Below are positions 9,194 to 33,287 of a stretch of 56,374 nt of DNA, piece after piece (positions within the stretch are counted from its first letter, which is position 1; every line of letters begins with the position of its first letter). A model generated the notes under the pieces. That model searched no databases and had not been told where the DNA came from. It saw only the letters and a list, made by a program, of their open reading frames with translations. The position numbers and the translations under genes are program-made. Source of the stretch: Candidatus Woesearchaeota archaeon. GTDB taxonomy: Archaea > Nanobdellota > Nanobdellia > Woesearchaeales > GW2011-AR4. The stretch is from assembly GCA_016185845.1 (NCBI GenBank), contig JACPMV010000046.1, positions 1-56,374 of the forward strand, in the 5' to 3' direction.

Positions 9194-9318
9194 ACTCGGA
9201 TAAGAATAGATTACTACTATATTAAAGTAGTGAAAATTTAAGGTATATACGATAAAATTAATATTTTATTGACATATATAATTTTACAGAAAACGTTATA
9301 ATTAACTAAATTTATTAG

Positions 9319-13791: not shown

Positions 13792-14316
13792 TTGCCCTTA
13801 TGGGATTTTTTTTTGCATTGGCTGTCGATTTTCGCAGCTCCGCTGAAAGAGCCCGAGATGTGGTGGATTATTGTGCCGATATGGATCAATTGGTTATTTA
13901 CGGAATTTTTCCAGGAAAAGCACGGAACATCATTCGGAAATGCCATAAGCAACGGTGCAATCGCGATATTTGCGAGCATTGACTGGACAAGGTACATGTA
14001 CAGGCTTTACACGGAAGGGATAATAAGGAGTTTTACATTCGGGATTTTTCTGAAGGTCATAGTTTCACTTGGGGTTTTTGTTTACGGATTTTATGTGATA
14101 ATTCTAAGCATAAAGACCCATAAGCTTGTTTATTTAATCGGCAGGATAAGGTGGGTAACTTACCTTTTGGTGATGTTCACTCCGATTGTCTATAATGTGA
14201 TAAAGATGGATTTCTATACGCTTCTTGCAATTATCGTATTCTTCCCCCTGTATTACTGGATCATAGAAATTTTTGACAGAATAACGCCTGAGCCAAAGAC
14301 TTACAGGCACTCATAA
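13792..14316 (+). CDS. Polytopic membrane protein, unknown function
   Basis: Four to five hydrophobic helices. TTG start in the track; an ATG at 13858 is an alternative. Confidence 0.45.
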   Translation: MPLWDFFLHWLSIFAAPLKEPEMWWIIVPIWINWLFTEFFQEKHGTSFGNAISNGAIAIFASIDWTRYMYRLYTEGIIRSFTFGIFLKVIVSLGVFVYGFYVIILSIKTHKLVYLIGRIRWVTYLLVMFTPIVYNVIKMDFYTLLAIIVFFPLYYWIIEIFDRITPEPKTYRHS

Positions 14317-15174
14317 TTCATCCAAAGGGCTTTTTACTTTCTTCAGCTGCTGTGTCGAGACTTTTGTGTAAATCTGCGTCGTTGACAAATCAGAATGGCC
14401 TAAAAGCTCCTGTATGACCCTTATATCAGTCCCTGCTTCAAGCAGATGCGTTGCAAAGCTGCTTCTTAATGCATGGCAGAAAACCCTTTTCTTCAGGCCT
14501 GCTTTTTTTGCGTTTTCTTTAACAATATTTTGCGCCTGCCTTATTGTTATTGGCCTGCCTTTTACCGAGAAAATGTACTGGCTGCTGTCTTTCTTTTTTG
14601 TAATGTAATCGTTAAAATGATGGATCAGGTTATTGGAGAGTATGATGTACCTCTCCTTGTTGCCCTTGCCGTGCCTTATCTTGCCCATCTTTTCGCTTAA
14701 GTCAAGGTCGTCAATTTTCAGATTGACGCATTCGCTGACCCTTAATCCGGAAGAGTACATAAACTCGATAAGAAGCCTGTGCTTTGGATTATCAACAGCG
14801 TTAAGCAGTTTTTTTATCTCATCCTTTGTCAGTACTGTGGGGAGCTTTTTTTCCAGCTTTGGCGCCTTAACCTCATTAAAGGCTGGATTTTGCAATATTT
14901 CCCTGTAGAAGAACTTGAGAGAGCTTAAGGCAAGATTTGCGCTCCTTGGGCTGTATTTTCGTTCAGAGAGCAGGTAAGCAAGGTACCTCTTTGCATCATG
15001 CTCACCGACTTCCTTTGGATCTTTTTTAATGAACTCAATGAAATTTTTGCTGTGGTACTTATAGGAATCAACAGTCCTTTTGCTGAATCCCCTTATTTTG
15101 AGCTCTGTTTCAAGTTTATCCAGCATCTCTTCATTTTTTGACATAGTTAGTGGGATGAACTTGAGTAACATCAA
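14311..15174 (-). CDS. xerA: Tyrosine recombinase, archaeal XerA / XerCD family
   Basis: SAM-like N-domain. Catalytic region with R (GLRVSE), HALRSSFATHLLEAGTDIRVIQELLGHSDLSTTQIYT (H-x-x-R ... H ... Y). The start may be at 15144 (MSKNEE). Confidence 0.85.
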   Translation of the reverse strand: MMLLKFIPLTMSKNEEMLDKLETELKIRGFSKRTVDSYKYHSKNFIEFIKKDPKEVGEHDAKRYLAYLLSERKYSPRSANLALSSLKFFYREILQNPAFNEVKAPKLEKKLPTVLTKDEIKKLLNAVDNPKHRLLIEFMYSSGLRVSECVNLKIDDLDLSEKMGKIRHGKGNKERYIILSNNLIHHFNDYITKKKDSSQYIFSVKGRPITIRQAQNIVKENAKKAGLKKRVFCHALRSSFATHLLEAGTDIRVIQELLGHSDLSTTQIYTKVSTQQLKKVKSPLDEL

Positions 15175-15857: not shown

Positions 15858-16010
15858 TCAGCGGTGATAGCTCGGATTTACTCCGACAGCCTTCATCTCC
15901 TCTGCGCCGCACTCGTTGCACCTGTAAACCTCATATTTTGAGTTGCCGCTTTGAATTATGCCTTTCTTGCTCATCTTGTCGTCGCATTTCCTGCATTTGA
16001 ATTCTGCCAT
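15858..16010 (-). CDS. Unlisted 50-aa zinc-ribbon protein
   Basis: My own translation is MAEFKCRKCDDKMSKKGIIQSGNSKYEVYRCNECGAEEMKAVGVNPSYHR, with two CxxC pairs. It falls below the 60-aa ORF track cutoff. Confidence 0.45.
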   Translation of the reverse strand: MAEFKCRKCDDKMSKKGIIQSGNSKYEVYRCNECGAEEMKAVGVNPSYHR

Positions 16011-16042
16011 TTTGCTTTTCCTGAACAAGGTGGTTTATATAA

Positions 16043-16507
16043 CTATTGATTTAGGATTAGCTTGTCATCGACATTAATCTTGTTGCCTGCCGCAAATCCG
16101 GCATTTACTTCAAGGACATATTTTGCAGGGCCTGATGAAGCATAATATTTGCAAGGGTCTTTGCTGCACGGCTCTGCGCCCTTGATGTCCACAATTTCAA
16201 AATTATTCCCAATGAAAATAATATCCAGGGGAATCAATGTGTTTTTCATCCAGAAAGTTTGAGGCCCCTCATTTTCAAAAATGAACAGCATTCCGGAATT
16301 TTCTTCAAGTTTTTCCCTGAACATAAGGCCTTTCATCATCTCTTCTTTGTCGTCTGCAATTTCAGCATTGATTCCGATTAATTCTCCACCATTGTCAATA
16401 AAGATTTCTTTTTGGGTTTTGTCGGAAATTTTTGTGCAATTTACTAAAAAAATCAGCATAAAAACCAACAAAATTTTAACGGAATTTTTTGCAAATTTTT
16501 TTGTCAT
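16043..16507 (-). CDS. Secreted DUF192 (COG1430) family protein
   Basis: N-terminal signal or lipobox-like VNC. Motifs GLMFRE, GMLFIF, FWMKNTLIPLDIIFI. Confidence 0.7.
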   Translation of the reverse strand: MTKKFAKNSVKILLVFMLIFLVNCTKISDKTQKEIFIDNGGELIGINAEIADDKEEMMKGLMFREKLEENSGMLFIFENEGPQTFWMKNTLIPLDIIFIGNNFEIVDIKGAEPCSKDPCKYYASSGPAKYVLEVNAGFAAGNKINVDDKLILNQ

Positions 16508-17395
16508 TTTTGATTGATTTTTTTCAAAATTTTTAATGTTTTCTATTCAAATTTACAATTATTAATTATTAAATATTGTAGTTAATTATTATATAATTTA
16601 GTTAACTTAATCTTTTTTATTGTATATTTTTTTATACTCTTGTTTTAATAAGTATTTTATAATAATTATATTTTTAATCTCCCTTTTCATTACATACTTT
16701 ATTAAATACTCCATATAACATACACTTTAAATAATATAAATTACTCATAATTTTATTTTCAATATTAAAAATCTTCAATTTTTAATCCCGAAAAATAATT
16801 TATTATTTTTCGATATAGAAAAATTTATCTTAAACGTGAAGTTGACTCATAAAAAGTGAGAGTTAAATAAGCAAAACAGAGTATATGGGTTAATCAGATA
16901 TACTCTTTTTAGAATAAAAGGGAATCAATATAGGGAGGCTAGGCTGATAAGGCAACCTAATTAAAACATTGGATCAAGCACCTCTTTTGTGTTAACCATA
17001 ATCTGGCTGGAAATAGTTAAGATGGTCAAGCCACCACCTCTAAAAATACCCCGGCTAAAACGTTAAAATAAGCATATTGTGAACTAACCTATAACAAACA
17101 CCATTAACAAAGCGGTTTACATAATAGAAAGTGAGGATTACATGATAAGTTAGGCACTATGAAAATAGCTAATTTTTTGTGCTAATACGGCTTATAACCC
17201 ATGAATCTAGCCTTTATAGGCGTTTTAAACAATAATCAAATATGGTGCTAAACTGAGTTTATGGAAGGATTAGCCAATTGGGTACTAATCTAATTTTTGG
17301 ATATAATCTTAACAAAAAATAACTATTCTGGATTTGTTTGGCGCAAGCTGCTTTTGGTAATTTGTCGACGGGAAATTGATTTTATGGCTATAATT

Positions 17396-18904: not shown

Positions 18905-20197
18905 TTAGAATATTTTCCTGATTATTTTATGCGTGAATTTATTTGCATTTTTTCCGGTATAATTTCTTACAACCTGGCCTTTTCCCACCAGCTTGTATTT
19001 GTATATTACTAAGCCTTCCAATCCAACCGGCCCTCGCGCATGGATTTTTGCAGTACTTATGCCTACTTCCGCGCCTTTTCCGTACCTGAAGCCGTCTGCA
19101 AACCTTGTAGAGGCATTCCACATGACTGAGGCAGAGTCAACAAGATCCATGAATTTTTCAGCATTTTTTTTGTTTTCTGTTATTATTGCATCAGTGTGCT
19201 TTGAGCTGTGCTTATTTACATGGCTTATCGCTTCATCCAAATCATTGACCACCTTTACAGACAAAATAAGGTCATTGTATTCTGCGTCCCAGTCTTTTTC
19301 TGATGCCTTTTTAACATCTGCTATTCTTCTCGTTGATTCGTCTCCTCTGATTTCAACCCCTGCTTTTTTGAATTTTTCAGCCATTTTCGGCAGAAATTTC
19401 TTTGCAATATCCTTGTGGACAAGCAGCGTTTCAACTGCATTGCAGACAGCAGGATACTGGCATTTTGCATCAAAGCTTATCCTTATTGCTTTGTTCAAAT
19501 CAGCGTATTTATCAACATAAATATGGCAGATGCCCTCTGAATGCCCCAAGACGGGTATTTTTGTGTTCTCTTGTACATACTTTACAAAGGCATTGCTCCC
19601 TCTTGGGATTATTAAATTGATATGCTCATGCATTTTCAGCATTTCTGCTACCTGCTCTCTTGTTTCAATCAGCTGCACAGCGCCTTTTGGAATCCCGTTC
19701 TTCTCTGCAGCTTCTGATATTATTTTAACTAGTATCTTGTTGGAATTCAATGCTTCAGAGCCGCCTTTTAAAATAGCAGCATTGCCGGATTTTAGGCACA
19801 AAGCGCTTATTTGAGTGACCGCATCAGGCCTGGATTCAAATACTGCTCCGATAACTCCGATAGGGCATGTGACTTGGTAAAGCATCAGCCCTTTGTCAAG
19901 CTCGGTTTGGGATAATGTTTTTCCTACAGGGTCTTCCAGTCTTGCAACGCTTTTTATTTCTTCAACAATTTCATGTATTTTATTGTTGTCTATTCTCAGC
20001 CTGTCTACAATTACCATATTTAGTTTTTGTTTTTCGGCTAATATTAAATCTTTTTCATTTGCCCCAATTATTTTCTTTGAATTGCTTTTTATTGAGTTTG
20101 CAATTGCATTCAGCGCTTTATTTTTTACGCCAGTCGGCAATACAGCTAGCTTGATTGATGCTTCTTTCGCAAGTTTTGACTGTTCTGTTATGCTCAT
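18905..20197 (-). CDS. proA: Gamma-glutamyl phosphate reductase
   Basis: Aldehyde dehydrogenase fold with the catalytic Cys context (AVCNAVETLLVH) and a HGSKHTD-like SSKHTDAIIT. Confidence 0.9.
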   Translation of the reverse strand: MSITEQSKLAKEASIKLAVLPTGVKNKALNAIANSIKSNSKKIIGANEKDLILAEKQKLNMVIVDRLRIDNNKIHEIVEEIKSVARLEDPVGKTLSQTELDKGLMLYQVTCPIGVIGAVFESRPDAVTQISALCLKSGNAAILKGGSEALNSNKILVKIISEAAEKNGIPKGAVQLIETREQVAEMLKMHEHINLIIPRGSNAFVKYVQENTKIPVLGHSEGICHIYVDKYADLNKAIRISFDAKCQYPAVCNAVETLLVHKDIAKKFLPKMAEKFKKAGVEIRGDESTRRIADVKKASEKDWDAEYNDLILSVKVVNDLDEAISHVNKHSSKHTDAIITENKKNAEKFMDLVDSASVMWNASTRFADGFRYGKGAEVGISTAKIHARGPVGLEGLVIYKYKLVGKGQVVRNYTGKNANKFTHKIIRKIF

Positions 20198-21012
20198 TTT
20201 CCCAGCTCTTTGCTTCTTTTTATCGCAGCATTGATTGTTTTTTCTATGATTTTGCTTGTTTTGTTTTTGTCCAATACTTTTAATCCTGCCAGTGTAACAC
20301 CTTTTTTCGACGCTACCATTTTTATCAGTTCGTCAGGGCTTAGATTTTTTTCAATCAGCAGCTTACCGGTTCCCAATGCAGTTTTGGCAGCAAGCTTATA
20401 AGCCGTTTCCTTTGGTAGCCCATTTTTCATACCAGCTTTTGCCATTGCTTCCATGAAATAGGCGAAGAAAGCCGGTCCTGATCCGCTTATTGACGAAAGA
20501 GCATCTATCAATTCTTCTTTTATAAAAAATGATATGCCTGCCGAATTCAGCAATTTTTTAACTTCATTTACATCATCCTTTGTCGCGTATTTTCCCGCTG
20601 AAAACCCTGCAGCCATCTCTCCAACCAAGCTGTTTATGTTGGGCATAACCCTTATTATTCGCTTTTTGCCTAAAACAGATTCTATATGCCTTATTTTTAT
20701 TCCTGCGGCTATGGAAACAATTAGCTGGTTTTTTATTTCTCCTTTTATTTCTTTTAGGACAACATCAATGTCCTGCGGCTTTACGCAGATAAAGACAATA
20801 TCGGAGTTTCTTACGGCTTCTTTGTTGTCCGTTGTTGTTCTGATTCTTTTAAATTTTGATTTAATATTTCTCAAGTTTTCTTCCCTGTGGTCGCTTGCTA
20901 TCACGGATTTGGCAAGATTATTCTTATAGATACAGCTAATCAGGGCTGCTGCCATCTTTCCGGTTCCGATGAAGGAGATTGGTTTGGTCATCTTTTTTAA
21001 CACTTTATTCAC
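20194..21012 (-). CDS. proC: Pyrroline-5-carboxylate reductase
   Basis: Rossmann motif ISFIGTGKMAAAL and a P5CR C-terminal dimerisation domain. The biological start is probably the ATG at 20991 (MTKPISF..). Confidence 0.85.
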   Translation of the reverse strand: MNKVLKKMTKPISFIGTGKMAAALISCIYKNNLAKSVIASDHREENLRNIKSKFKRIRTTTDNKEAVRNSDIVFICVKPQDIDVVLKEIKGEIKNQLIVSIAAGIKIRHIESVLGKKRIIRVMPNINSLVGEMAAGFSAGKYATKDDVNEVKKLLNSAGISFFIKEELIDALSSISGSGPAFFAYFMEAMAKAGMKNGLPKETAYKLAAKTALGTGKLLIEKNLSPDELIKMVASKKGVTLAGLKVLDKNKTSKIIEKTINAAIKRSKELGK

Positions 21013-21704
21013 TTATTTTTAAACTTTTCATAATCAAGGACAGCTTTCTTATGCTTTTCAAACAATTTATTGTCAATATGCCCGTAAACTCCTTGAAGAT
21101 TGTCCTTGAACTGCTCCGAGACTATTTTTTCCTTTATTTTTAAAAATCTATCATTAAAATCCGCCCTTTCCGATACTTCCCCCTTAACCCATTCGGGATC
21201 CTTAACTTGCGGCATCAGCATAAAAATATCCCTTATGTCTGTATTTCTGCAGGCTACCAACTTCATAACTACAAGCGCCTCAGGATTCACAATCCGCAGC
21301 TTTAACTCTCCTGCAATGGTTTTTCCCTTTAGTGCTCTTAAAGCAGAGTTCTTAAAAACCCATTCTGCGCTAAACATTGCTTTTGTCTGCCTGTCATAAA
21401 CATTCTTAATCAATATATCGAAGCTGACAATAAAATTTTTCTTTATTGCTTTTTCATATCTGAGGAAATCTCCGGAATATGGCCCAAAATCTGTGCCTTT
21501 TGCTATTTCATAGCCTAATTTGTCCAGCTCCTTTGCTATTTCTGCAGTTTCAGCCTTATTTTCTGTGACTATATCGCAATCCACAGAAAATCTGGGCAGA
21601 GTGTAAGCATTGACTGCATAGCCGCCTATTACTGCAAATTTTTGATTATTTATTTTTTTAAGAGCGTCAAAAATTTCCTTTTCCCTAATCTGAAGCAGTT
21701 CCAT
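21009..21704 (-). CDS. Minimal nucleotidyltransferase, AbiEii-like toxin candidate
   Basis: VIGGYAVNAYTLPRFSVDCDIV fits the GG..(A)......R.S.D.D NTase pattern of DUF1814/AbiEii. It overlaps the upstream partner gene by 20 nt. Confidence 0.5.
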   Translation of the reverse strand: MELLQIREKEIFDALKKINNQKFAVIGGYAVNAYTLPRFSVDCDIVTENKAETAEIAKELDKLGYEIAKGTDFGPYSGDFLRYEKAIKKNFIVSFDILIKNVYDRQTKAMFSAEWVFKNSALRALKGKTIAGELKLRIVNPEALVVMKLVACRNTDIRDIFMLMPQVKDPEWVKGEVSERADFNDRFLKIKEKIVSEQFKDNLQGVYGHIDNKLFEKHKKAVLDYEKFKNK

Positions 21705-22287
21705 ATTTTTTCCTCATGTAGTTGTAGGCGTATGAATACATTTCATTTGCTTTTGCTGTTTTTAATGAGTCCTTTAATGGCTCAACTTTTAACCCGCCAT
21801 TGTCATCAAATTTAATCTCATTTACCGGGATTAAAATCACATATTCCCCAATTGTCGAGCCCTCTTTTATATAATTGGGTATATTTATTTTATTGAAGAA
21901 CCTTTTCCAGTATTGTAAGTCTTTTCTCAAGACCTTTATGAAGTAAGGTGATTTCTCAATGCCCCTCTGGACATAGGAATAGTCAGACCATACCTCTATT
22001 GCCGATAAATTTGTGAATGCATAAGGTTTTGAGGCTTCTTTCATTAAGCGTGGCACTTTGAATTCCAACAATCCTTCGATTACAGTCTCCGGCTGCATGC
22101 ATTTATAAGTGCCCCTTGAGGCCTTTACTATCCAGCCTGCTCTTAATAAGGTGGAGAATATCTTTTTCCTCATGCTCTGGCCTACAATCCAGTCTAATTC
22201 AGACTGCTTAAACTGTTCTCTTGGGCCGTGCCTTGTGAAAAACAATGAGTACGCCCTCAAGCAATACTGCGGTATTTCGCTTATCAT
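21685..22287 (-). CDS. AbiEi-like winged-helix antitoxin/regulator candidate
   Basis: The N-terminal LLRAGWIVKASRGTYKC matches the L..G.l..v.RG.Y signature of AbiEi N-domains. It lies upstream of and overlaps the NTase gene. Confidence 0.45.
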   Translation of the reverse strand: MISEIPQYCLRAYSLFFTRHGPREQFKQSELDWIVGQSMRKKIFSTLLRAGWIVKASRGTYKCMQPETVIEGLLEFKVPRLMKEASKPYAFTNLSAIEVWSDYSYVQRGIEKSPYFIKVLRKDLQYWKRFFNKINIPNYIKEGSTIGEYVILIPVNEIKFDDNGGLKVEPLKDSLKTAKANEMYSYAYNYMRKKYGTASD

Positions 22288-22320
22288 AGTTACCTATTAG
22301 GTAACTATCTATTTAAATAG
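22286..22320 (-). promoter_or_regulatory. Palindromic operator candidates at the AbiEi-like gene start
   Basis: Perfect inverted repeat atagttacc-tatta-ggtaactat (22286-22308) touches the start codon. It is followed by the 12-bp palindrome ctatttaaatag (22309-22320), which contains a TATA-like core. Confidence 0.5.
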
Positions 22321-22337
22321 TTTTCGGTTTTGAGAAA

Positions 22338-22524
22338 CTAATCAAGGCTGCTGCCATCTGTCAAAAACCAACAAGATTAACTATATCTCGGAAATTCAAA
22401 AATTTCCGATGACCATCGAAAATTGCTTTGCAATTTATCGAGGAATTGTATTGGTTTTTGAGCATCATCAGAAATTATCAAGATTTCTGAGATTTCCGGT
22501 TCCTATGAAGGAGATTGGTTTCAT
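22338..22524 (-). pseudogene. Orphan duplicate of the proC 5' end, interrupted by a 134-bp insert
   Basis: 22338-22359 plus 22494-22524 align to 20936-20991 with 2 substitutions and one 3-nt indel. The fragment would encode MKPISFIGTGKMAAALI(S). Both substitutions are synonymous. Confidence 0.8.
22360..22493. mobile_element. 134-bp highly palindromic insert (MITE-like element or structured RNA)
   Basis: It splits the duplicated proC fragment exactly. Nested stems are tcaaaaaccaacaa/ttgtattggtttttga, tcggaaat/atttccga, tcgaaaattgc/gcaatttatcga and cagaaat/atttctg. Confidence 0.45.
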
Positions 22525-22567
22525 TATTTTAAAAAATAAATTTTTTAGTATTTAAGATTCATTTGTT

Positions 22568-24637
22568 TTAATGTTCCCTTATTGCGAATAATTGCGCATA
22601 TCCTTGCGCAGTCTTTTTTGGCTTAATAATCTCATTTATTTGAGTTAGCATGCTTTGCCACTGGAATACGCTTTCAGGCATTTTTTTGCCCCACATATCC
22701 CATGGTCTTACCCCATAGTCCAAGCCGCCTTGCTCAGCGCCAATAGTATCCAACTCTTCCATAACCTCATTCCATGGGCGGATTTCACGCATTAATTTTT
22801 CTATTATATACATAGATATTCCTCTTGAAGATATATGCGGCTCCTGATTTTGGCCGCTTATAGCAAATGAATGGTCTGGCACTTCATAATAATATCTTCT
22901 TCCAACATGTTTCCAATCTACGCTTGTTTCTTTTCTTTTAACCCACCCAAGATCAAATGCAGGATTCTTGTCAGTCGGGCCTACTTTGTAAAGATAAGGG
23001 TATGTTCCAATATCTGATTTTTTCAGCCCTGCTCCGGGAATCTCCCTTAAAAGATCTACAGGAACATATTTTTGACCTGTAACTCTTCCTGTAACTGGGT
23101 CTTTCCTGTATGCTATATCATTTTCATTTTCCATATGCCATAAGTTCCATATTGATGCATTATTTGCTTCAACATAATCCATTATAGTCGAAGTCCCAGT
23201 ATGAAACCTGCCGTCTCTTAAATCATCTCTGTAAGTGTCATGCATATTTGTTATATAATTTGCCATTTCCAGCGTATCCACCCAAACCTTAAATTGCGAC
23301 TCGGCGCCGCCAGGAAGTTGTCTCCACGTGCTGCTTTTGGTAGGATTGCCTTTCTCATCCCATTTGTCCATCATTACATAGCCATCTTCATCAACTTCCA
23401 AAGGATAGCCATATTTATCAAGCCCATGGTCTAACTCATCAGGCTTTTTGTACCATTTGCCTCCTCCGGGATTTGTGTAGCCGTCATATTTTCTTAACTC
23501 GTCTTTAATTTCAGCATTGAAGTATCGCTTGCCGTAAACAATCGGCTGTATAATTTTATAAGAATGGTAATAAACCATTTTTTCTGGAGAAAATACTTCT
23601 TGGGATTGTGTTCTACTCATATCCGCAATTTTATCAAATGCCTGAGACATAACTACGCCACGATTCCTGACAAAAGAACGGGCCCTTCCCTCATATCCTG
23701 TAGTCAGCTCATCTCCAAAATGTGAACCTTTGATTTTTTCGCCACCGCAATATTCAGATAGTATAATTCCAATGTAGCTTATGTATGCTCCTCGTATTGA
23801 TTTAACATGACCTATCATATTTTTTTTGATAGTTTCATCCGCTTCCAAATCAACTACTCTTGCTATAAAATCATCGCATATTTTATTTATTGTAGCTGTA
23901 TAACGTAGAGCATAATCAGCCTGCCGGCCATATCCAAATGGGCTGATTTCAACAATCCATTCACGGCTCATGCCAGGAATAGGATACCTCATTTTGCATT
24001 TTGCAGGCACAATATACTCATAAGCCTGACCTGCAATGTTTATTGATAACTTATCAAAAACAAATGGATCCTGCAGTCTCCTCATTCTTTCCTCTTCAGT
24101 TTCTTCTTCAATATCCTGCTCTATTTCCAAGTCTTTTTGTGTTATCCCCCTTTCATATAATGGGTACTCCCAGTTTGTTCTTGAAGGATCCAGGAATATT
24201 CCCGCTTTTGCATATATATCATTAAGCTCTTCTACATAACCTCTTTGGTCCTTATCCGGGTCCCATCTTTGAAAAACATCCCAGCTTTTCTCAATGGAAT
24301 TTACTGCTTCTACTCGCCTTTGCAATAATTTAATTAAGTTTTCAACCCTTGTGTCGTGTCTTTTTAAGGGATGCCTGAGCCTTTGCCATAAGCTTATTTC
24401 TTCTCTTGCAACTTTGCCTATGTCAAGCCTTACTGCCTGCAGTGCGCCAGCCGCTTCCCCTCTGTATTTAGTATATCTTAATGGTATTCCCGTTCCTTCT
24501 TGAATATTTATATCAATCCATCTGCCAAAACGGGACCTCTTGAATTTATGCTTTATTATGTTAGCCCATCTTTGTGGCCATTTACTTGCCTGCCTTGGTT
24601 GTGGTTGTTGCACACTAGGCTGCTCTTGGTCTGCCAT
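22568..24637 (-). CDS. 689-aa orphan protein, last gene of the five-gene operon
   Basis: Strong SD (gggaggag) 5 nt before the ATG. Overlaps the upstream gene by 23 nt. Trp/Tyr/Arg-rich with no recognised motif. Confidence 0.7.
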   Translation of the reverse strand: MADQEQPSVQQPQPRQASKWPQRWANIIKHKFKRSRFGRWIDINIQEGTGIPLRYTKYRGEAAGALQAVRLDIGKVAREEISLWQRLRHPLKRHDTRVENLIKLLQRRVEAVNSIEKSWDVFQRWDPDKDQRGYVEELNDIYAKAGIFLDPSRTNWEYPLYERGITQKDLEIEQDIEEETEEERMRRLQDPFVFDKLSINIAGQAYEYIVPAKCKMRYPIPGMSREWIVEISPFGYGRQADYALRYTATINKICDDFIARVVDLEADETIKKNMIGHVKSIRGAYISYIGIILSEYCGGEKIKGSHFGDELTTGYEGRARSFVRNRGVVMSQAFDKIADMSRTQSQEVFSPEKMVYYHSYKIIQPIVYGKRYFNAEIKDELRKYDGYTNPGGGKWYKKPDELDHGLDKYGYPLEVDEDGYVMMDKWDEKGNPTKSSTWRQLPGGAESQFKVWVDTLEMANYITNMHDTYRDDLRDGRFHTGTSTIMDYVEANNASIWNLWHMENENDIAYRKDPVTGRVTGQKYVPVDLLREIPGAGLKKSDIGTYPYLYKVGPTDKNPAFDLGWVKRKETSVDWKHVGRRYYYEVPDHSFAISGQNQEPHISSRGISMYIIEKLMREIRPWNEVMEELDTIGAEQGGLDYGVRPWDMWGKKMPESVFQWQSMLTQINEIIKPKKTAQGYAQLFAIREH

Positions 24638-26387
24638 AATTCTCCTCCCTCTTAATTTCTATTGATGTTTTTGTTTGTTGATTATCTAAAATAAGGAACC
24701 CAAAATTATTTTTCATGAACCTATCGAGCACTCGATATTCTTCTTCAACTGCGACCATATAATCCTTTAATTCTTCCAGTTTTCTTTGAATATTCTCATC
24801 TTTAAATATACTCTCCATTAAAGATAGATTATATTCGGCGCTTTTAGCGAAACCAGCTGCCTGTCCAAGGCCGTACATTATTGCTAAGAAATACTTTGGC
24901 GTTAAGGAAGTTGCTTCTAAGCTGGCGCCGCTGATTTTACGAACCCTATCTATAAGTGGAATAGCCATATTAATGCGGGCAAGTGCAATTTCTAATCTTG
25001 ACACAATCTGTTCCCTTATATCATGATCGATAACCCTTTCTTTTGCAGAGAAAAAATCAGTAGATACATCAGCGCATCTATCACTTAAATATTCGAACAT
25101 TGTCTTTAAATCTTCAATTCTTTTCCTCAATCTTTCTTTAACCCTTCTAGCTTCTTTCAGGATGGCAGCGGCAGTGTCGCGTTCACTTTTGACTATTGGC
25201 AATAAAGCATCTTTCAGCTCGCCAACCTCGGGTTTTTCCATTTTGCTTAATTCCGCAATTCTGCTCCTAAAAAGAATTTCCATCGCTGTAATGAATGGGT
25301 ATATGACTCTTGCCCTCATGTACTGGACAGAGCTGAATTCCGCCAGCTTTTGCGTCAAAAATTGAAGCATTTCTCTTGGATATTCTCTTTTTGCTTCGGC
25401 CTTGGAAAACAACCCTTTGTGGTAAGCGATTTTTTGCTCCAGCTCCTCTGCAAATTCGGCAGCTCCGAAATCATTCACCAATTTGTCCACTACTTTTTTT
25501 GGATTTGTGAACCCTTCCCAATTAAATGAATCTCTTTGGAAGGCGTCTATTTGCGCTTTTAAATACCCAAGGAAGGCATAAAAGTTTTCAAGATGCCTCT
25601 TGGCTCTATTTGTTCTTGAGAATTTTTCAACTGCCTCATCGTTAAAGTCCTTTATCAAGCCCAAATGATCTTTGCCTTCTCCATCAAAGAAAACTTTGGC
25701 TCTGGCTTCAAAGAATGGGATTCCCATTGTCATAGACTCTCTTGTTTTCCATGACTCAACTTCTCTTAAATCCCTTGCCAGCCACTCTATCTCCTGCCCT
25801 GTAAGCATTACTATTATATTCTCAATTCTTGCAGATGCTTTTTTATCTCTCATGCTGTCAAGAGAAGCTCTTATTTCTGCTCTGTGGGGCGGGGTTTTAA
25901 TATATCCCTCAACTTTCTCTTTTTCAGGATTTTCCATTACAAACCTGTAAAGATTCAGCAATACAATAAACTCATCTTGTGCCTTATCACTTGTAAACTC
26001 TTTTCCTGATTTTCCTAGTTGCTCTAGGACATATCCCATCAGCTCTCCCCGGTATCTTACAATCCATTGCCTCATTGCCCTTAACTTTCTTAAAAATTCA
26101 AATGGGTCACCATTGGATGCCCTGTAGTTATTCGATATCAAGAGTATCAACTGGAAATCAGGGTATCTTTCCAGTAATTTGCGATCGTCATTTAAGCCGT
26201 TTTTTAAATGATCTTGCACCCTTATTCTTTTAGAATCTACTTTATCTATGAATTCCAAGCTGCTGCCAAAAACTTGGGCCAGAATTGCGTCTGCGCGTTT
26301 CATAGTTTCTTCAATAAGTTTACTTTTTCCTTTTCTTCGCAAAATGCCTTTCAGTTTTTCAAACAATGCTGAATTAATTTTAATCAT
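24615..26387 (-). CDS. 590-aa predominantly helical orphan protein
   Basis: ATGA start/stop overlap with the upstream gene. Long charged helical segments. No NTPase or nuclease motif seen. Confidence 0.7.
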   Translation of the reverse strand: MIKINSALFEKLKGILRRKGKSKLIEETMKRADAILAQVFGSSLEFIDKVDSKRIRVQDHLKNGLNDDRKLLERYPDFQLILLISNNYRASNGDPFEFLRKLRAMRQWIVRYRGELMGYVLEQLGKSGKEFTSDKAQDEFIVLLNLYRFVMENPEKEKVEGYIKTPPHRAEIRASLDSMRDKKASARIENIIVMLTGQEIEWLARDLREVESWKTRESMTMGIPFFEARAKVFFDGEGKDHLGLIKDFNDEAVEKFSRTNRAKRHLENFYAFLGYLKAQIDAFQRDSFNWEGFTNPKKVVDKLVNDFGAAEFAEELEQKIAYHKGLFSKAEAKREYPREMLQFLTQKLAEFSSVQYMRARVIYPFITAMEILFRSRIAELSKMEKPEVGELKDALLPIVKSERDTAAAILKEARRVKERLRKRIEDLKTMFEYLSDRCADVSTDFFSAKERVIDHDIREQIVSRLEIALARINMAIPLIDRVRKISGASLEATSLTPKYFLAIMYGLGQAAGFAKSAEYNLSLMESIFKDENIQRKLEELKDYMVAVEEEYRVLDRFMKNNFGFLILDNQQTKTSIEIKREENYGRPRAA

Positions 26388-28618
26388 TTTGTTTTTTCTC
26401 CGCCTGTAGTAACTCCAGTTGTGAATACTTTTTCAGGAGTTTTAGATGAACTATCCCATACCCAATAAGCCAATTCCTGCCTGGTTTTGTCAGTTTTCTT
26501 TTCTGCTTTTTCAATCATCATATTCAATACCTGCGATAATCCGACTGTGGAAAGCGTTGGGTAAGGATTTCCGGTTTTTCTGTCCCTGCTCACAGATTCA
26601 TCCCAGTAATTTTTTTTGCCCCAATATTTATAGAGCCCAGAATGCCTTAATGCCTCCAAATCAAATGCCCCTCTCTCAGGGTATTGCGGAGGTGTTCTTG
26701 TCGGATATTCTCTGCCATTTTGATTCCTGCTTCTCAAGTCAAATGTATTCTTGCTTATTAGGTTTGTATAATCTACATCAGACCTGCTGTTTGGATGGTA
26801 ATGCCCAAATCTAAGGTCCTGCATAAAAGCATCCCACTCATTTAAAATCTGTTTAAAGACAAAGGCAAACGATGCTATGTTAGGATACTCATTGGTTTGC
26901 GGGTAATCTTTAATGTCTTCTATCCTTACTCGTCTTATATAGCCAAGGTTTTTGTGCTCAACTTCTATGGCATTGACATCTTCCAGAACAAAGCCTTTTA
27001 TGTCAACCTCGTGCCTCAACGGGACTGTTCCAAATTGAGTTGCAAAAGACTGGATAGCAAAACCAAGCCTGAAACTCTTGTTAATTTTAGCCAATTCATC
27101 ATTTATTTGCTTTCTTACTTTAAGGCTTTTAAGTTCAAGCTGAGCAGCATCTGTCACTTCTAATTTGTAGCGTCTTTTGAATTTCTTATCGGTCCTGTAA
27201 AGTCTGGTAAATTCAGGCTTTAACCGTCCTCTAACCTCTCCTTCAAGCCTTCTATTAACTTCTTCAGCAACCCTTTCTTCAACCCATCTTCTGGCCGGTG
27301 AACCCGCACGACCAATGCCAGTCGCATTTGGAATTCTCCGTTTTATCTCGTTAAGCGCATGTTCTGTAAATCTTCGTCTTGCATCTTCAGTTAATGCGGT
27401 TCTTAGCTCGCTTTCAATCCTTTTTCTTAAATCTTCCATAAACTCTTTTTGCTTTTTCTTCATTATTTCAATGTATTTTCTTCTGACCGCTTTGGCGTAC
27501 TCCTTATAACCCGGATAATCTTTCCAAATCTTAAGTTTTTCAAAGTCTATAGACCAAACTACAGGATCGCCTTTATCAATGGTATTTACTGGAACTTCCC
27601 ACAACTCATAAATTGCGTTTTCGTCTGCAAACCTGTAATAATGCTTATATGCGCCGTATAAGGCAACTAGGTCCAAGATATGGATTTTTAGGCTCTTTAA
27701 CCTATGGATTAGCCCGAATTTCTTTATATCATCTTCGAATTGAGAATATCCTTTACTCATAGCTGTAAAAATTCCCAAGAAACGTGATTTTATATATCCT
27801 TCATATATCTTCAAATCGTCATGCTCATTGTATTTTCCTTTGAGTTCACTGCTTTCAAGATGACTTTTGAGCAATTCAAAAAATTGGGTAATCATCTCCC
27901 TGTTTGTGTTCCAGCCTCTTTTTTTATCACCCAAGTCAAACCTGTGCGTGTCAATCACTTCACTTAGCTCGTCATAACTCATTGGAGTCTGATCAAAAAT
28001 TATCTGAAGCCCGGCAGCCTGGGCCTGGGCATCCTCAACTCCTCCCTTTTTGCCATAATAAGTGTGCAATCTCGTCATCCAGTTCATAACCATCATTAAT
28101 TCTGCCCTAATCTGGGTAAAAGTGTAGGAAAGCTCATTATTGAACTGCGGATTTTTCATTTCAAGATTCTCTATTCTATTTTTTACAATCCGCAGTCTGG
28201 ATTGCCTTAATGCGAGCAAAAACGGAGCCCAGCCCCTTTCTTTTACCCCTTTCCAGATTCTGCTGCGGCGTTTTTTGTATGGGAACCATTTGTACCATTT
28301 ATTTGAGGTTTTTCCCAACAATCCAATTCCTGTCCACCACGGCATCCATGCAAATTTTGGAGCAACTTTTCTGAAAAAGACGCGCCACATTTTCCATATT
28401 ACCCAAAACCATATAATGCCAACTAGGGTATTTGAGAAAGGACCAAGATATTCCTTTCCACCAGCCGAGGTTGAAATACTGTCAAAGATAATAGTTACAG
28501 TCGGTACCCATCCTGCAATAAATGGCGTAGCTAATATATCTAGGAGTAGGAATACCATAAGCCATCTGAAGATTTTTCTCCATTTCCAGCTATCCAAAAT
28601 ATTTGTTGTGTCCGCCAT
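26384..28618 (-). CDS. 744-aa orphan protein with N-terminal transmembrane helices
   Basis: Two to three N-terminal hydrophobic helices, then Lys/Arg-rich helical regions. The C-terminal roughly 200 aa resemble the C-terminus of the 689-aa protein. Confidence 0.7.
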   Translation of the reverse strand: MADTTNILDSWKWRKIFRWLMVFLLLDILATPFIAGWVPTVTIIFDSISTSAGGKEYLGPFSNTLVGIIWFWVIWKMWRVFFRKVAPKFAWMPWWTGIGLLGKTSNKWYKWFPYKKRRSRIWKGVKERGWAPFLLALRQSRLRIVKNRIENLEMKNPQFNNELSYTFTQIRAELMMVMNWMTRLHTYYGKKGGVEDAQAQAAGLQIIFDQTPMSYDELSEVIDTHRFDLGDKKRGWNTNREMITQFFELLKSHLESSELKGKYNEHDDLKIYEGYIKSRFLGIFTAMSKGYSQFEDDIKKFGLIHRLKSLKIHILDLVALYGAYKHYYRFADENAIYELWEVPVNTIDKGDPVVWSIDFEKLKIWKDYPGYKEYAKAVRRKYIEIMKKKQKEFMEDLRKRIESELRTALTEDARRRFTEHALNEIKRRIPNATGIGRAGSPARRWVEERVAEEVNRRLEGEVRGRLKPEFTRLYRTDKKFKRRYKLEVTDAAQLELKSLKVRKQINDELAKINKSFRLGFAIQSFATQFGTVPLRHEVDIKGFVLEDVNAIEVEHKNLGYIRRVRIEDIKDYPQTNEYPNIASFAFVFKQILNEWDAFMQDLRFGHYHPNSRSDVDYTNLISKNTFDLRSRNQNGREYPTRTPPQYPERGAFDLEALRHSGLYKYWGKKNYWDESVSRDRKTGNPYPTLSTVGLSQVLNMMIEKAEKKTDKTRQELAYWVWDSSSKTPEKVFTTGVTTGGEKTK

Positions 28619-28622
28619 TGTA

Positions 28623-29777
28623 TTATTTAGTTATGGACTCCCATAGTCCGCCGACAAGCCCAGCTACTAATCCTACTACTAATTTGCCAATAGCCACGCC
28701 TGTACTCAATGAAAAACTGCTGCCAGGAGCTGAAGGCGCGCCCAGACTTGGTGCTCCAGCTATACTGCATGCGCTTCCTAAAGCTTTGGCAGTAGCTGAA
28801 AAAAATCCACTTATGTATCCTGCTCCGATTGTATTACTAGATACTTCCGCAATTTTGCATAATCCGCTTCCAAATAATCCGACAAGCGCGCTTGCGCCGA
28901 ACATTGTCCGGAATAGATATTCAACTACTACGATAGTTATTAGCCATCCTAATACCATTCCAAGAGAGCCTTTGCCTTGAGTGAGTATGCTGGCAATTAT
29001 CACTATTAGGAATAATTGCGCCATTCCAATTACAAGAGAGTAATCAGCTCCAGTACGGGCAAGAGTTGAGCCAAGCCATGCTGCTATGAAATAAGTAAGT
29101 TTTTTGCCGCCAGCTTGATCCAACTTTAGGAATACGCTGAAGAACCAGGCAAATAGGATGGTAGACCCAAAAAACACCCACAGCCTGTATTTATTCGCTT
29201 TTTCTGGCCTTAGTATTCCTCCTAAGGTTTTTCCAGGCGTTGAAGGATCAGGCTTGTCTGGCTCAAGGAGATAATTTTTAGCTACAGTATAATTTTCAGT
29301 TCTCCATAACCAATTATCTCCTATGCTTACCGCTATCATGCCTGCTATTAATATTGACAATAAGACAAGTCCAATTTGCCCTTGTTTTTTTTGCGGGTTA
29401 ACACCAAGAAACCCTGCTCCAAACCATCCAACAGCAGCAATAATTAACGCATTCACCAGAACTTTCGGCCTTAGTATTGTTGAAAGCGGCCCAACATTCC
29501 ATATATATCCCTCGCCTTTTCCGCCAATTGTCAGGACTGTTATGACGGCCAGCGCATAGCATATGACCCATATCGCTACTTTCTCCTTGCCCTCTTTTTT
29601 CGGTATAAGGACTGACTGAAGTATGAATAGAATGAAAAACACTATCTTGACGTTTACAAAAAATATAAACCATGTATTGCTGAATATGGGAGCGTCGAAT
29701 ATGCTTTGGGCAAAAGCCAACGGCAGGCTGATTATCAAAACCAATGCGCTAATCCACATTAATTTGTTTATTTTCAT
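28623..29777 (-). CDS. 384-aa polytopic membrane protein with a Gly/Ala/Ser-rich C-terminus
   Basis: Signal-like N-terminus and eight or more hydrophobic helices. C-terminal SNTIGAGYISGF and a Pro/Ala/Ser tail. 4-nt overlap with the upstream ATPase gene. Confidence 0.7.
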   Translation of the reverse strand: MKINKLMWISALVLIISLPLAFAQSIFDAPIFSNTWFIFFVNVKIVFFILFILQSVLIPKKEGKEKVAIWVICYALAVITVLTIGGKGEGYIWNVGPLSTILRPKVLVNALIIAAVGWFGAGFLGVNPQKKQGQIGLVLLSILIAGMIAVSIGDNWLWRTENYTVAKNYLLEPDKPDPSTPGKTLGGILRPEKANKYRLWVFFGSTILFAWFFSVFLKLDQAGGKKLTYFIAAWLGSTLARTGADYSLVIGMAQLFLIVIIASILTQGKGSLGMVLGWLITIVVVEYLFRTMFGASALVGLFGSGLCKIAEVSSNTIGAGYISGFFSATAKALGSACSIAGAPSLGAPSAPGSSFSLSTGVAIGKLVVGLVAGLVGGLWESITK

Positions 29778-30925
29778 AACTCTTTCACAGCCTCATCCAA
29801 AATTTTGTCATCAGGAAGCTCATCAAACTCATAGCCCATAGAAGTTAATTTAATCCAAAGCCTAAGAACATTATCAGTAAAGTAGAATTTGTTGCCTTTC
29901 TTGTGTATCACATCGACATCCATCAGCCTTTCAATGATGCTTTTTGTGACAGGGGCGCTCCTGTAGATTTTTTTGGCAATTTCGCTCAGTCTCAATTCAT
30001 CATTTGCGACGACTTTCAGGATTATTTTGAGCAGGGTCTGCCCCCTTGCCCTGTTGTAATAGTAATTCAGGGAATCATTGCAATAATTGTAAATAGGATT
30101 GTTTTTTTGCAGAAGCTCAATCAGAAATGATTTTTTAGCATCTTTTATCTCATTGTATCTTTTGGAAATAAGGATGGTTATCAAGGGATGGCCCTGGCCC
30201 AACGCCCAGATTTCTTCGCTTGCGTTATCTTTTCCTATAATGCTTTCCGCAAGCTCAATAGCCTCTTTTTTCTCAAGATTTTTTATCTCGTAGCACTCAA
30301 AATTTTTCAGCGAAGCAAGGCTTTCCCTTATGGCAGAGCTTGCCGCAATATACCTTGCATTTTCAGCCTCAAAATTTATCACTGATAAAATATCCCTAAT
30401 CTGCGAGAAATTGTTCAGGTCAAGAAGGTTCTCGAAATTGTCAAGGGCAATGATGAATTTCCTGCCGCTGTCTTTCCCAAGCCTTTCTGCAAAATCAAAC
30501 GCGCTTTCAACAAGCAGCTTCTGGTCGGGCTTTATCTTTAATAATTCATTCTCAACAGCCTTTATCAGAGAAAATGCATTTTTGCTTTTCAGCTCGTTTT
30601 CAGCCTTAAGAAGGTTTTCCAGCAGAAGAAATTTTTTGTACTCTTTTAAGGGCTTTTTTAAAAAATTATAGGCAACATTACCTATAAGCTCAACAGAAAA
30701 ATTCTCAGGATTGAGGCTTATTTTTTCCAAGTCAATATAGACAGGAACAACGTCTTTGGCATTTTTAAGATGCTCTTTGATTATTGCTGTTTTTCCTGAT
30801 TTTCTGGACCCAAGCAGTGCAATGTTCTTGCCCGCTCCTGCCTTGAAAGAGTTTGTATTTTTATCTAGCAAATCCAGGTAATACTCTCTCTTAAAAACTA
30901 CCTCTTTCTTTGCCAAATATTTCAC
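29774..30925 (-). CDS. Archaeal ATPase (Arch_ATPase-type AAA+) with a DUF234-like C-terminal winged helix
   Basis: Walker A LLGSRKSGKT. Walker B-like FIIALDNFENL. C-terminal wHTH SEIAKKIYRSAPVTKSIIERLMDVDVIHKKGNKFYF. GTG start at 30925. Confidence 0.75.
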   Translation of the reverse strand: MKYLAKKEVVFKREYYLDLLDKNTNSFKAGAGKNIALLGSRKSGKTAIIKEHLKNAKDVVPVYIDLEKISLNPENFSVELIGNVAYNFLKKPLKEYKKFLLLENLLKAENELKSKNAFSLIKAVENELLKIKPDQKLLVESAFDFAERLGKDSGRKFIIALDNFENLLDLNNFSQIRDILSVINFEAENARYIAASSAIRESLASLKNFECYEIKNLEKKEAIELAESIIGKDNASEEIWALGQGHPLITILISKRYNEIKDAKKSFLIELLQKNNPIYNYCNDSLNYYYNRARGQTLLKIILKVVANDELRLSEIAKKIYRSAPVTKSIIERLMDVDVIHKKGNKFYFTDNVLRLWIKLTSMGYEFDELPDDKILDEAVKEL

Positions 30926-30930
30926 TCGTA

Positions 30931-31180
30931 AATTATACCAATTGGAATATATACTTATAATATAAAAATGTTTTGTTTCTTTTAATTATACCAATAGGTA
31001 TATATTTTTAAAATTAATATTCCATTTTGTATAGAACTAGTATTTAAGACTTTTGTTTCTTATAATTATACCATTTAGTATATAAACTTTTTGGTATAAA
31101 TTTGGATATCAGCTCTATTCAGGAATAATGTAACCATTTTCTAGTAATAAAAATAAAAACCTTTATATATTGGTAGTATA
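30931..31180. promoter_or_regulatory. Divergent control region with repeated TATACCA-N-GGTATA palindromes
   Basis: aattataccaattggaatatata (30931-30953), aattataccaataggtatata (30984-31004) and aattataccatttagtatata (31064-31084). Copies 2 and 3 share the flank ttttgtttct. A degenerate copy tatattggtagtata (31165-31179) overlaps the TATA of the RHH operon. Confidence 0.65.
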
Positions 31181-31421: not shown

Positions 31422-32289
31422 GCCTTCAGAGCTTGAAAATATGGCGCAGGCTGCTCCGCAAACTGCTTCTCAACCAGCACAACAGCAGCCTGAGAAAAAG
31501 AAAGAAGAAACTCCGCTAGAGGAAATTGCAAACGGAGCAAAAAATGTTGCTGCATTTGGTGTCGGTACTGCATTGCCCTTTGTCTGGCCATTTGGAACTG
31601 GCATTAACAACGCAGTAACCGCCCTGCCGTTGGCCATGGGCTCTGCAATAGAAGACAAGATGCAGGGCAAGCCGATAAACTGGGTTAAAGGCGCAAAAGA
31701 ATCTCTTGTTGGAACTATAATCAACCGGCCGTTGGAGCGGATGTTCGGATACATAAACATTTCTCGTGATTATGTGACTGCAAATTACGGAATGATTCCT
31801 GGCTTTGCGGCAGCTACTGCGGCATTGGGAGCTGCGCAGGCTGTTTTCGTTGGAGCTTACATGGGCCTTAACCATGTCATACAAAATCACACATTCAAAG
31901 GCTTGTATGAAAAATTAAAGAAAGACTACTTGCCGACAATCAAAAGAACCTGGAAATATGTACTGCCATTTAGCGCTTTGAATGTTACCCTTCTACCACT
32001 AACCGGCCTTTACCAAACTCTTGGGGTTACAGCACAGCTTGCATACGGCTCATTGATGTCTTTATTGTTCAGGCTGGTTGGTCCAAAAGCAGAAGGCACC
32101 AGTCTGAAGAATCTAGTCAAGGAATTGAATCCTTTTGCGTACATAGGTGGGACTATAAGTGTCACAGCCAAAGCTGCCAAAAATACAATCGGGGGATTAT
32201 ACACTGGACTTTATGATTTAGGCAGAGCCATTGGCGGATATTCTGCAAAAGCGGCACCAGCAACAGCACCAGCACTGCAACCGGCATAA
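31414..32289 (+). CDS. Paralogous membrane protein P1 (291 aa)
   Basis: Small-residue-rich hydrophobic helices. Motifs LNPFAYIGG and AKNTIGGLYTGL. Pro/Ala-rich tail. Confidence 0.7.
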   Translation: MAEPSELENMAQAAPQTASQPAQQQPEKKKEETPLEEIANGAKNVAAFGVGTALPFVWPFGTGINNAVTALPLAMGSAIEDKMQGKPINWVKGAKESLVGTIINRPLERMFGYINISRDYVTANYGMIPGFAAATAALGAAQAVFVGAYMGLNHVIQNHTFKGLYEKLKKDYLPTIKRTWKYVLPFSALNVTLLPLTGLYQTLGVTAQLAYGSLMSLLFRLVGPKAEGTSLKNLVKELNPFAYIGGTISVTAKAAKNTIGGLYTGLYDLGRAIGGYSAKAAPATAPALQPA

Positions 32290-32291
32290 AA

Positions 32292-33285: not shown

Positions 33286-33287
33286 AA

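Follow-up and report, generated by a model that had tools for sequence, protein, structure and literature searches.

Why should the start of a housekeeping gene occur twice, once in its place and once as an orphan on the far side of an unrelated operon? The question is raised by contig JACPMV010000046.1 (GenBank assembly GCA_016185845.1), a stretch of 56,374 nt from a Candidatus Woesearchaeota archaeon, the whole of which is referred to here as the window. In it proC, the gene for pyrroline-5-carboxylate reductase, is preceded by two overlapping genes that resemble an AbiEi/AbiEii toxin–antitoxin (TA) pair, and the first codons of proC are found again beyond them. An earlier note on this DNA had read the arrangement as the trace of a single element that integrated into the 5′ end of proC while supplying a replacement start. 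Insertion is supported by empty sites in relatives, by repeated cassettes and by the geometry of the repeat; the single-cassette picture proved too narrow, the pair being one unit of a lineage-wide array of small, integrase-free operons that is built up and reshuffled at this site. We argue below that the units probably travel as integrase-less circles, each with its own copy of the proC 5′ end, and integrate by single crossover.

The intact proC (20194–20991; this and all other features of the locus lie on the minus strand) encodes 265 aa with Pfam matches to P5CR_dimer (2.9e-35) and F420_oxidored (4.5e-21), and is followed by proA, which overlaps the proC stop, and then proB. A gene call starting at the ATG at 20991 is already in the database record, and those of the 1057 proC homologues that are named come from Woesearchaeota or Nanoarchaeota metagenome-assembled genomes. 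Direct reading and repeat searches agree with the earlier note that the first 56 nt of this gene (20936–20991, the attR-like, gene-side copy) recur upstream in two pieces. Part A, i.e. proC nt 1–34 (20958–20991), is matched by an orphan A′ at 22494–22524, an ATG plus 10 codons (31/34 nt) with one mismatch (ATC to ATA, Ile) and without codon 2 (ACC); part B, nt 35–56 (20936–20957), is matched by B′ at 22338–22359, which is 21/22 identical to the real gene, the single mismatch (G/A at 20943/22345) turning CTG into TTG (Leu). The description of two substitutions, both synonymous, and one deleted codon between the copies was therefore accurate. The possibility of a chance repeat is rejected by the blastn-short E-values (3.5e-09 for part A, 5.3e-05 for part B) together with the recurrence of the repeat in independent assemblies, and that of a wider dispersed repeat, which the earlier note had named as a refuting outcome, by the repeat searches, which gave no further copy of either part in the 56-kb window.

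The orphan would encode merely an 18-aa peptide. Its split into A′ and B′, which lie 134 nt apart (22360–22493, with one boundary base ambiguous), is real, but the intervening 134 nt are a separate conserved hairpin element, dispersed at low copy number and termed X below, which was missing from the earlier description. Otherwise the bracket holds just the two overlapping AbiE-like genes, as seen in the list of open reading frames (ORFs), and no integrase was found within it among the ORFs and Pfam matches of the window, both points as first noted. The GC content of the cassette is not distinct from its surroundings. Between the abiEii stop (TGA) and the proC ATG there are 17 nt (20992–21008), and since a homologous spacer is present in other AbiE-bearing arrays (L142 and L009, the prefix L denoting comparison loci), this spacer presumably came in with the cassette. 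The two A copies are spaced 1,536 bp from start to start (20958–22493); with a crossover between proC nt 34 and 35, the insert would have exactly this length.

What the site looked like before insertion can be seen in relatives. About 15 Woesearchaeota loci keep the gene order p744–p590–p689–[gap]–proC–proA–proB–(PAC2), in which the first three genes encode proteins of 744, 590 and 689 aa. The conserved 689-aa protein (22568–24637), which has no Pfam or NCBIfam match, bounds the hotspot on the left in every lineage, as judged by synteny. The trio as a whole (22568–28618, minus strand) consists of consecutive large genes without significant Pfam or NCBIfam family, and every Woesearchaeota locus examined has it in synteny on the upstream side of the hotspot. 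The gap is empty in L017, L086, L025 and L043, where proC directly follows the 689-aa gene, about 50–130 nt after its stop, the arrangement that had been expected of cassette-free relatives; in L017 the stop and the proC ATG are separated by 54 AT-rich nt. In the window the orphan ATG (22522–22524) lies 43 nt beyond the same stop and, because this spacing matches that of the empty sites, it marks the original proC start. The 43-nt AT-rich spacer (22525–22567) corresponds, by comparison with L017, L025 and L043, to the ancestral proC promoter region, and this position supports the earlier proposal that proC stayed intact while the orphan kept the old promoter. All of the DNA from 22493 down to 20958 (1,536 bp) appears on this comparison to be inserted. 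The orphan A′ of L028 stops at the same GGAAA| point, and is followed there by the 3′ remnant of a DUF4143 gene before proC.

The window region is present in six independent groundwater metagenome runs, in the Logan contigs of which the depth of the cassette equals that of its flanks. Segments with B′, X and the 5′ end of abiEi reach 3–10 times the flank depth in contigs of the source runs, which points to many strains or arrays in the community that share these segments.

Relatives also provide the evidence that the cassette has company. The same AbiE pair (200 + 231 aa) lies directly upstream of proC in L001–L004/L142 (88% identity), L009 and L149, with about 83–86% amino acid identity in the 200-aa protein (L142/L001, L009, L149), and a proC′ orphan lies upstream of the pair in L142/L001 and L009; the search for the cassette flanked elsewhere by proC-like repeats, suggested by the earlier note, was thus successful in L142/L001, L009 and L149. 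Extra small operons stand further upstream in these contigs, and other ones occur in L007, L100, L132, L131 and L137. Five cassettes separate the 689-aa gene from proC in L142 and four do so in each of L007 and L100; more arrays are found in L132, L131 and L149, some of them ended by contig edges. The cassettes, more than 20 in about 10 arrays, are of uniform size (0.7–1.5 kb), and carry several kinds of HEPN/MNT pairs, AAA_14/DUF4143 ATPases, a PIN(DUF3368)/UPF0175 pair, winged helix-turn-helix (wHTH) pairs, a second AbiE-like pair (215 + 234 aa) and a retropepsin-like gene. No integrase or recombinase was found inside any related array examined.

Nearly all array boundaries have the form A′[X]B′, often with the A′ keeping its own ATG. 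The A′ copies inside one array differ in codons 2–6, resembling different proC alleles, and this, together with the retained ATG, suggests that the proC starts arrived separately, one with each cassette. One example of the process is a 181 + 165-aa MNT/HEPN cassette, which abuts the intact proC in L131 and is cassette 2 of 4 in L007. When the two are aligned, the downstream A runs into proC in L131 and into X–B′ plus two further cassettes in L007, so that the alignment shows the site before and after an insertion at proC nt 34/35. L100 and L132 have their last cassette and junction in common and differ upstream, and the same cassette types are found at different positions in different arrays. 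What is seen is an integron-type organisation, viz. tandem cassettes without a recombinase, with structured repeats between them and an order that differs among arrays. The duplicated extent is longer in L021, where the proC orphan reaches about nt 85 rather than 56. Many junctions (e.g. L142:5917-5931, 6789-6803, 7686-7700 and 9302-9316; L100:1501-1515; L095) have an additional conserved segment, CCAGCAGCCATTTCC(ACAAGGGAA), after B′; it is absent from the junction of the window, and looks like a degenerate version of the proC GGAAAGATGGCAGCAGC core in inverted orientation.

The cassette of the window is most likely, judging from its domains and layout, an AbiE-type pair in which AbiEii is a putative nucleotidyltransferase toxin and a wHTH protein its neutraliser. 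The downstream gene (21009–21704, 231 aa) matches PF08843 at 25.8 bits (gathering cutoff 22.5; E 1.2e-05) and AbiEii in PADLOC (3e-05), with a weak match to PDB entry 8an4, an AbiEii/AbiGii toxin. The upstream gene (21685–22287), which overlaps it by 20 nt and shares the strand of proC, encodes a 200-aa AbiEi-like putative antitoxin and repressor with a putative N-terminal wHTH. PADLOC gives it a marginal AbiEi match (0.0043 over residues 37–79), and no Pfam or NCBIfam family and no PDB sequence match was found for it; its AlphaFold2 model is of low confidence (pLDDT 59), too poor for a fold search, and has an H-H-H-E-E order at residues 7–63, i.e. a wHTH-like N-terminus. With 977 homologues found for the 200-aa protein, the pair is very common in Woese/Pacearchaeota, from which all named homologues come. 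The best 120 of the 977 share at least 68% identity and range from 198 to 206 aa, with nearly all at 200; on these best 120, the protein appears to represent a family that is very uniform and specific to Woese/Pacearchaeota. Searches for exact matches to the proteins of the window gave none.

The palindrome that the earlier note had assigned to the pair as its operator is a perfect 19-nt one, AGTTACCTATTAGGTAACT, at 22288–22306, which adjoins the ATG of the 200-aa gene and is a putative operator. A TATA-like TTTAAATA lies directly upstream of it (about 22309–22316), and with the conserved leader TTTCTCAAAACCGAAAAC they make up a promoter and leader region at 22288–22337. Homologous cassettes, whether they lie at proC or elsewhere, keep the palindrome and the CCGAAA..TTTAAATA box, and at the non-proC sites of the AbiE pair the palindrome is at the ATG in every case. 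The predicted wHTH repressor most likely acts on its own operon at this palindrome. This is how AbiE type IV TA and abortive infection systems are built, with an AbiEii-family nucleotidyltransferase encoded downstream of, and overlapping, an antitoxin-first wHTH gene, and an inverted repeat at the promoter as in AbiEi autoregulation; unlike in those systems, the 200-aa partner here is without a significant AbiEi sequence match and comes from the uniform family described above.

Element X (22360–22493, 134 nt) is a two-hairpin insertion between nt 34 and 35 of the orphan. Its form is TCTCAGAAATC-loop-(G/A)ATTTCTGATGATGC-TCAAAAA-loop-TTTTTGACA: in hairpin 1 a loop of 3–60 nt is closed by the stem CAGAAATC/GATTTCTG, the linker is ATGATGC, and hairpin 2 has the stem TCAAAAA/TTTTTGA with a variable loop, the element ending in ...GACA. 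It folds at −41.5 kcal/mol, with a z-score of −4.5 on the gene strand and −5.0 on the other strand against shuffled controls. The covariance model scores it at 65.5 bits (E 1e-12), as the sole window copy on the element's own strand, the other match in the window (32.2 bits, 22381–22466, plus strand) being an antisense reading of the same palindromic element. When 15 distinct copies are compared over the 16 base pairs, pairing is kept in 95% of the cells, and compensatory changes are seen in two of the pairs; covariation support is modest, most stem positions being invariant.

The X family is present in more than 15 other contigs and is conserved between species. It splits orphans at the identical nucleotide in L007, L142, L100, L131, L132, L137, L104 and L095, sometimes as two tandem copies in a junction, and is lacking from junctions J0 and J4 of L142 and from those of L009 and L023. 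Outside proC it occurs in the proB–PAC2 spacer of L008 (3024–3085), in L038 (9701–9801), L021 (19383–19451), L093/L130 (L093:1956–2014), L103, L114 (3678–3790), L115, L120 (839–909), L124 and L127. In L093/L130 it adjoins a xer paralogue, and non-coding copies often lie directly upstream of a start codon. With multiple unrelated loci, non-coding positions and conserved ends, as seen with the covariance model and a regular expression, X is in this respect like a miniature inverted-repeat transposable element (MITE) or dispersed hairpin repeat. No terminal inverted repeats were found at its ends, TCTCAG... and ...TTTTTGACA, which are not inverted, and no target-site duplication at GGAA(A)|GATGG beyond the one ambiguous base. 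Several other identities were tried and rejected. Rfam gave nothing at gathering thresholds (and a meaningless miRNA match at E 6.7), and the window holds neither tRNA nor tmRNA genes. A CUGAUGA motif prompted comparison by eye with hammerhead ribozymes, C/D-box RNAs and bulge-helix-bulge introns, the required GAAA and D-box elements of which are absent, and in variant copies the motif becomes GAGCAUGA, which also speaks against these readings. A role as transcription terminator was dropped on account of the copies directly before start codons in L114, L115 and L120. X is read here as a separate low-copy hairpin element that inserted into an orphan proC′ on one or a few occasions and then moved with the junction; alternatively, it may belong to the recombination site itself.

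The process is not confined to proC. In the L015 lineage, where ppc lies convergently between the 689-aa gene and proC, four TA-type cassettes are stacked between the 689-aa homologue and ppc (L015:4140-8520, contig JACPJQ010000005.1), and each boundary is a copy of the last ~40–50 nt of ppc plus a few flanking bases. The empty ppc state is found in L024 (8372–8389) and L014, where the 689-aa gene and ppc are about 17–80 nt apart. Because these boundaries copy the end of ppc, the process would seem not to be specific to the proC sequence but to regenerate whichever gene end borders the array. A core common to the proC-type and ppc-type sites was sought by eye and dismissed, since merely a non-significant 8-mer was found.

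How, then, could a unit without an integrase enter proC and leave it intact? In the sequence of events that we consider probable, the mobile cassette would run from 20958 to 22493: read in gene order, it would begin with X and B′, continue with its promoter and operator and the genes abiEi and abiEii, and close with the 17-nt spacer and A. The chromosomal gene would be joined to a circular DNA bearing a proC-5′-like site of the form A–X–B′ by a single reciprocal crossover in the initial ~35 nt of proC; with X in the incoming site, only a crossover in this stretch leaves proC intact. The host's old start A′ and its promoter would thereby end up joined to X–B′ upstream, and the incoming A to the remainder of proC downstream. 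Reuse of the site would let TA and defence cassettes accumulate one behind another in the gap between the 689-aa gene and proC, and the same process in another lineage would use the ppc 3′ end. Insertion, empty sites, arrays, reshuffled cassettes and the lack of an integrase in the arrays are shown by the sequences, and the circular intermediate is part of the reading. One consequence would be that proCAB is transcribed from the cassette after insertion. With abiEii ending just 17 nt before proC, and with proA overlapping the proC stop, the operon would need one of three starts: the promoter controlled by the palindrome and AbiEi, a TATA-like TTTAAAAATA in the last abiEii codons, or the old promoter reading through X.

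The catalyst would have to act in trans, either as a tyrosine recombinase, for which XerA is the sole candidate seen, or through host homologous recombination on junction repeats of 35–250 nt. The xerA gene (14311–15174, minus strand) matches NF040815 recomb_XerA_Arch at 270.7 bits (cutoff 220) and Pfam Phage_integrase at 3.2e-46, and is the only recombinase gene found among the ORFs of the window that were scanned, which were not all of them. Against the integron-integrase model TIGR02249 it scores 240.4 bits, under the cutoff of 265 and in two split stretches. It lies about 6 kb from the cassette and is syntenic 5–9 kb downstream of proC in several relatives, and may be regarded as a candidate only. 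Recognition sites that would tie a known recombinase to the junctions were also sought. A regular-expression scan for attC cores (R″ RYYYAAC and R′ GTTRRRY, 40–140 nt apart) gave none at any boundary of the window junction or of the L142, L100, L007, L132 and L131 arrays. No dif-like site, i.e. two ~11-bp arms around a 6–8-bp spacer, with at least 9/11 arm matches was found at 22300–22580 or 20900–21030. What is found at the locus in the manner of gene-end attachment (att) sites is a pair of direct repeats, one of which completes the gene, and an unoccupied site in relatives; an element-encoded integrase is absent from the window bracket and from the related arrays.

Several observations weigh against this reading. 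The comparison sequences are all metagenome assemblies, and neither an excised circle nor an empty-site molecule (the 20957/22494 joint) was found in the assembled Logan contigs of the six runs; the one back-joint there (22345 to 20945) is accounted for by strains in the same samples whose intact proC has the TTG codon. No recombinase is linked to the arrays, no dif-like or attC-like core lies at the junction, and XerA is equally syntenic beside the empty site. L016 and L020 carry cassettes at the site without detectable proC′ repeats. An AbiE-type pair adjoins proC in most arrays, so that its insertion could be old and vertically inherited, later cassettes entering upstream junctions and not proC. 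The pair is also found at other loci without flanking repeats, none having been detected around it at three of these, and the assignment of the 200-aa protein to AbiEi is weak.

The most serious alternative to a site-specific enzyme is host homologous recombination on the junction repeats. By itself this would require a founding duplication, followed by RadA-type looping-out, re-insertion at junctions or at proC nt 1–35, and swaps between strains. It sits well with integrase-free arrays that have no attC-like or dif-like cores, and would explain why the extent of the duplication varies (nt 56 mostly, ~85 in L021, variable in the ppc arrays) and why the repeats derive from one gene end in one lineage and from another in a second; junctions with X, at 100–250 nt, are also long enough for exchange. 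The real gene, however, offers just 34 nt (A) and 22 nt (B) of homology, every X-bearing junction breaks at one nucleotide, as does L028, and the choice of a gene end together with a restored gene is the classic signature of an integrase. It is this fixed breakpoint and the regenerated gene end that lead us to favour a site-specific enzyme, and to hold homologous recombination alone to be possible, if the less likely course. The same signature could have been left by a larger plasmid or virus that struck the proC 5′ end with its own integrase and later lost everything save an addictive TA pair and its att repeats. Integrase loss after integration and tandem integration are both documented for archaeal elements (PMC8371274), and the truncated gene remnant between orphan and proC in L028 is of the kind that such decay would leave. 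Yet more than 20 cassettes of uniform size, each with a repeat of its own, include none with an integrase, plasmid or virus gene, and the viral contigs hold no proC-type site, no X–B′ joint and nothing related to the 200-aa protein (their single X-motif match is coding DNA, and a virus or plasmid carrying the site was rejected as the source). Decay from a larger element is accordingly an unlikely account of the arrays.

Two further readings fit parts of the data and have little to recommend them as a whole. If the junctions were attC sites, cassettes might be moved by an integron integrase encoded elsewhere in the genome, as in a canonical integron or a cluster of attC sites lacking integron-integrases (CALIN). 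TA-rich integrons and CALINs have been reported in Archaea including Woesearchaeales (PMC9668308), the arrays here are TA-rich, their boundaries are structured imperfect palindromes of variable length, and hairpin 2 of X terminates in AAC...GTT triplets. The junctions scanned, on the other hand, hold no R″/R′ pair and, unlike attC, copy the neighbouring gene end; the cassettes have their own promoters and two genes; the sole tyrosine recombinase found is XerA by score and below the integron-integrase cutoff; and the junction motifs were not found in those supplements of PMC9668308 that were searched. This makes a canonical integron very improbable. A long target-site duplication, left by an integrase that like Cas1 or a casposase makes staggered cuts, here ~56 nt from each other, is suggested by the X-less junctions (L142 J0 and J4, L009, L023), which look like plain ~55-nt duplications. 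It is hard to reconcile with A′ copies that differ in codons 2–6 within one array like different proC alleles, with the different length in L021, and with the lack of terminal inverted repeats and of a Cas1 gene, and of all the readings it is the one to which we give least credence.

Some other features of the window lie apart from this locus. A perfect 26-nt direct repeat (3626–3651 / 3894–3919) gives an identical C-terminus, ...LPSMVGGC*, to two adjacent plus-strand ORFs (2549–3652 and a small ORF ending at 3919), and may reflect a shared C-terminal signal or gene conversion. Three 31-nt direct repeats (AATTATACCAAT.G.ATATA...) at 30931–31094 look like iterated binding sites; they adjoin the start of a minus-strand gene (29774–30925) with a weak ATPase_2/AAA_14/wHTH match. 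Intergenic repeats of 140 nt (32287–32426 / 33283–33422) and 102 nt (43–144 / 2423–2524), at 74–75% identity, sit beside neighbouring genes that look paralogous. The region 16001–17000, between PAC2 and a DUF192 gene, is mostly ORF-poor and has a GC content of 0.28, against about 0.38–0.40 elsewhere.

Returning to circular cassettes that enter by single crossover, the question arises of which known system they most resemble. Cis-mobilisable elements (CIMEs) are att-flanked elements that undergo site-specific accretion, as with the ICESt elements of Streptococcus. Here as there, integrase-less units lie between direct repeats that resemble attL and attR and stem from a gene end, tandem units are separated by internal att copies, and the element's copy restores the target gene, so that by analogy the geometry appears closest to tandem accretion of this kind; unlike there, no resident integrative and conjugative element or integrase is seen, and small units of only 0.7–1.5 kb enter an archaeal genome at the 5′ end of a protein gene. 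Integrative mobile elements exploiting Xer (IMEX) and the pdif modules of Acinetobacter plasmids, in which TA or resistance modules lie between pdif sites, likewise consist of small units, often TA modules, without a recombinase of their own and set between repeated recombination sites. Their mover is presumed to be the housekeeping recombinase of the host, and XerA is the sole recombinase found nearby in the window; in contrast to those systems, there is no dif-like 11-6-11 site here, and XerA is also present beside empty sites.

Integrons and CALINs, many of them with TA cassettes, were reported in archaeal metagenome-assembled genomes including Nanoarchaeota and Woesearchaeales by Ghaly et al. 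(2022, PMC9668308). The present arrays share with these a tandem arrangement of small cassettes that lack their own recombinase and are strongly enriched in TA and defence genes, hairpin-forming boundary repeats of variable length, and the occurrence of one cassette at different positions among arrays. They differ in having no IntI and no attC cores, in boundaries that copy the end of an adjacent core gene (proC 5′ or ppc 3′), in cassettes with their own promoters and usually two genes, and in abutting and regenerating a housekeeping gene, where an integron has attI beside intI. Archaeal integrative plasmids and viruses also target gene ends, mostly those of tRNA genes, with tyrosine integrases (PMC8371274). 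Gene-end integration, a replacement end supplied by the element and flanking direct repeats are common to both, and tandem integration and integrase loss are known in those elements (PMC8371274); the proC 5′ end as target, inserted units that are single operons, and about 10 arrays without an integrase, replication or virion gene set the present case apart. A limited literature search found no description of such gene-end arrays in these archaea, and we judge the feature to be integron-, CIME- or IMEX-like cassette accretion in a new form.

The genomes of DPANN archaea are tiny, and little is known of the routes by which genes enter them and pass between them. At the site described here TA and defence operons are stacked and reshuffled in a reproducible, sequence-defined way, with inserted DNA that is free of recombinase genes. 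The junction repeat is a practical marker with which to mine groundwater metagenomes for cassette-borne defence genes. If a dedicated or co-opted recombinase drives the arrays, they would be a second, independent solution to the problem that integrons solve, and the GGAAA|GATGG sequence of proC and the A–X–B′ junction would be its defined substrates, open to in vitro work. A bolder view, which we put forward as a speculation and regard as doubtful, is that Woesearchaeales have a gene-capture system not described before, in which a gene end is a permanent attachment site, and circular one-operon cassettes bearing a copy of that end and X would be inserted, excised and shuffled by a remote recombinase, be it XerA or an unknown enzyme that recognises hairpins. 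If true, these archaea would keep stockpiles of TA and defence operons, of which the newest member takes over transcription of the proline operon, and proCAB may in this way become transcriptionally tied to an addiction module.

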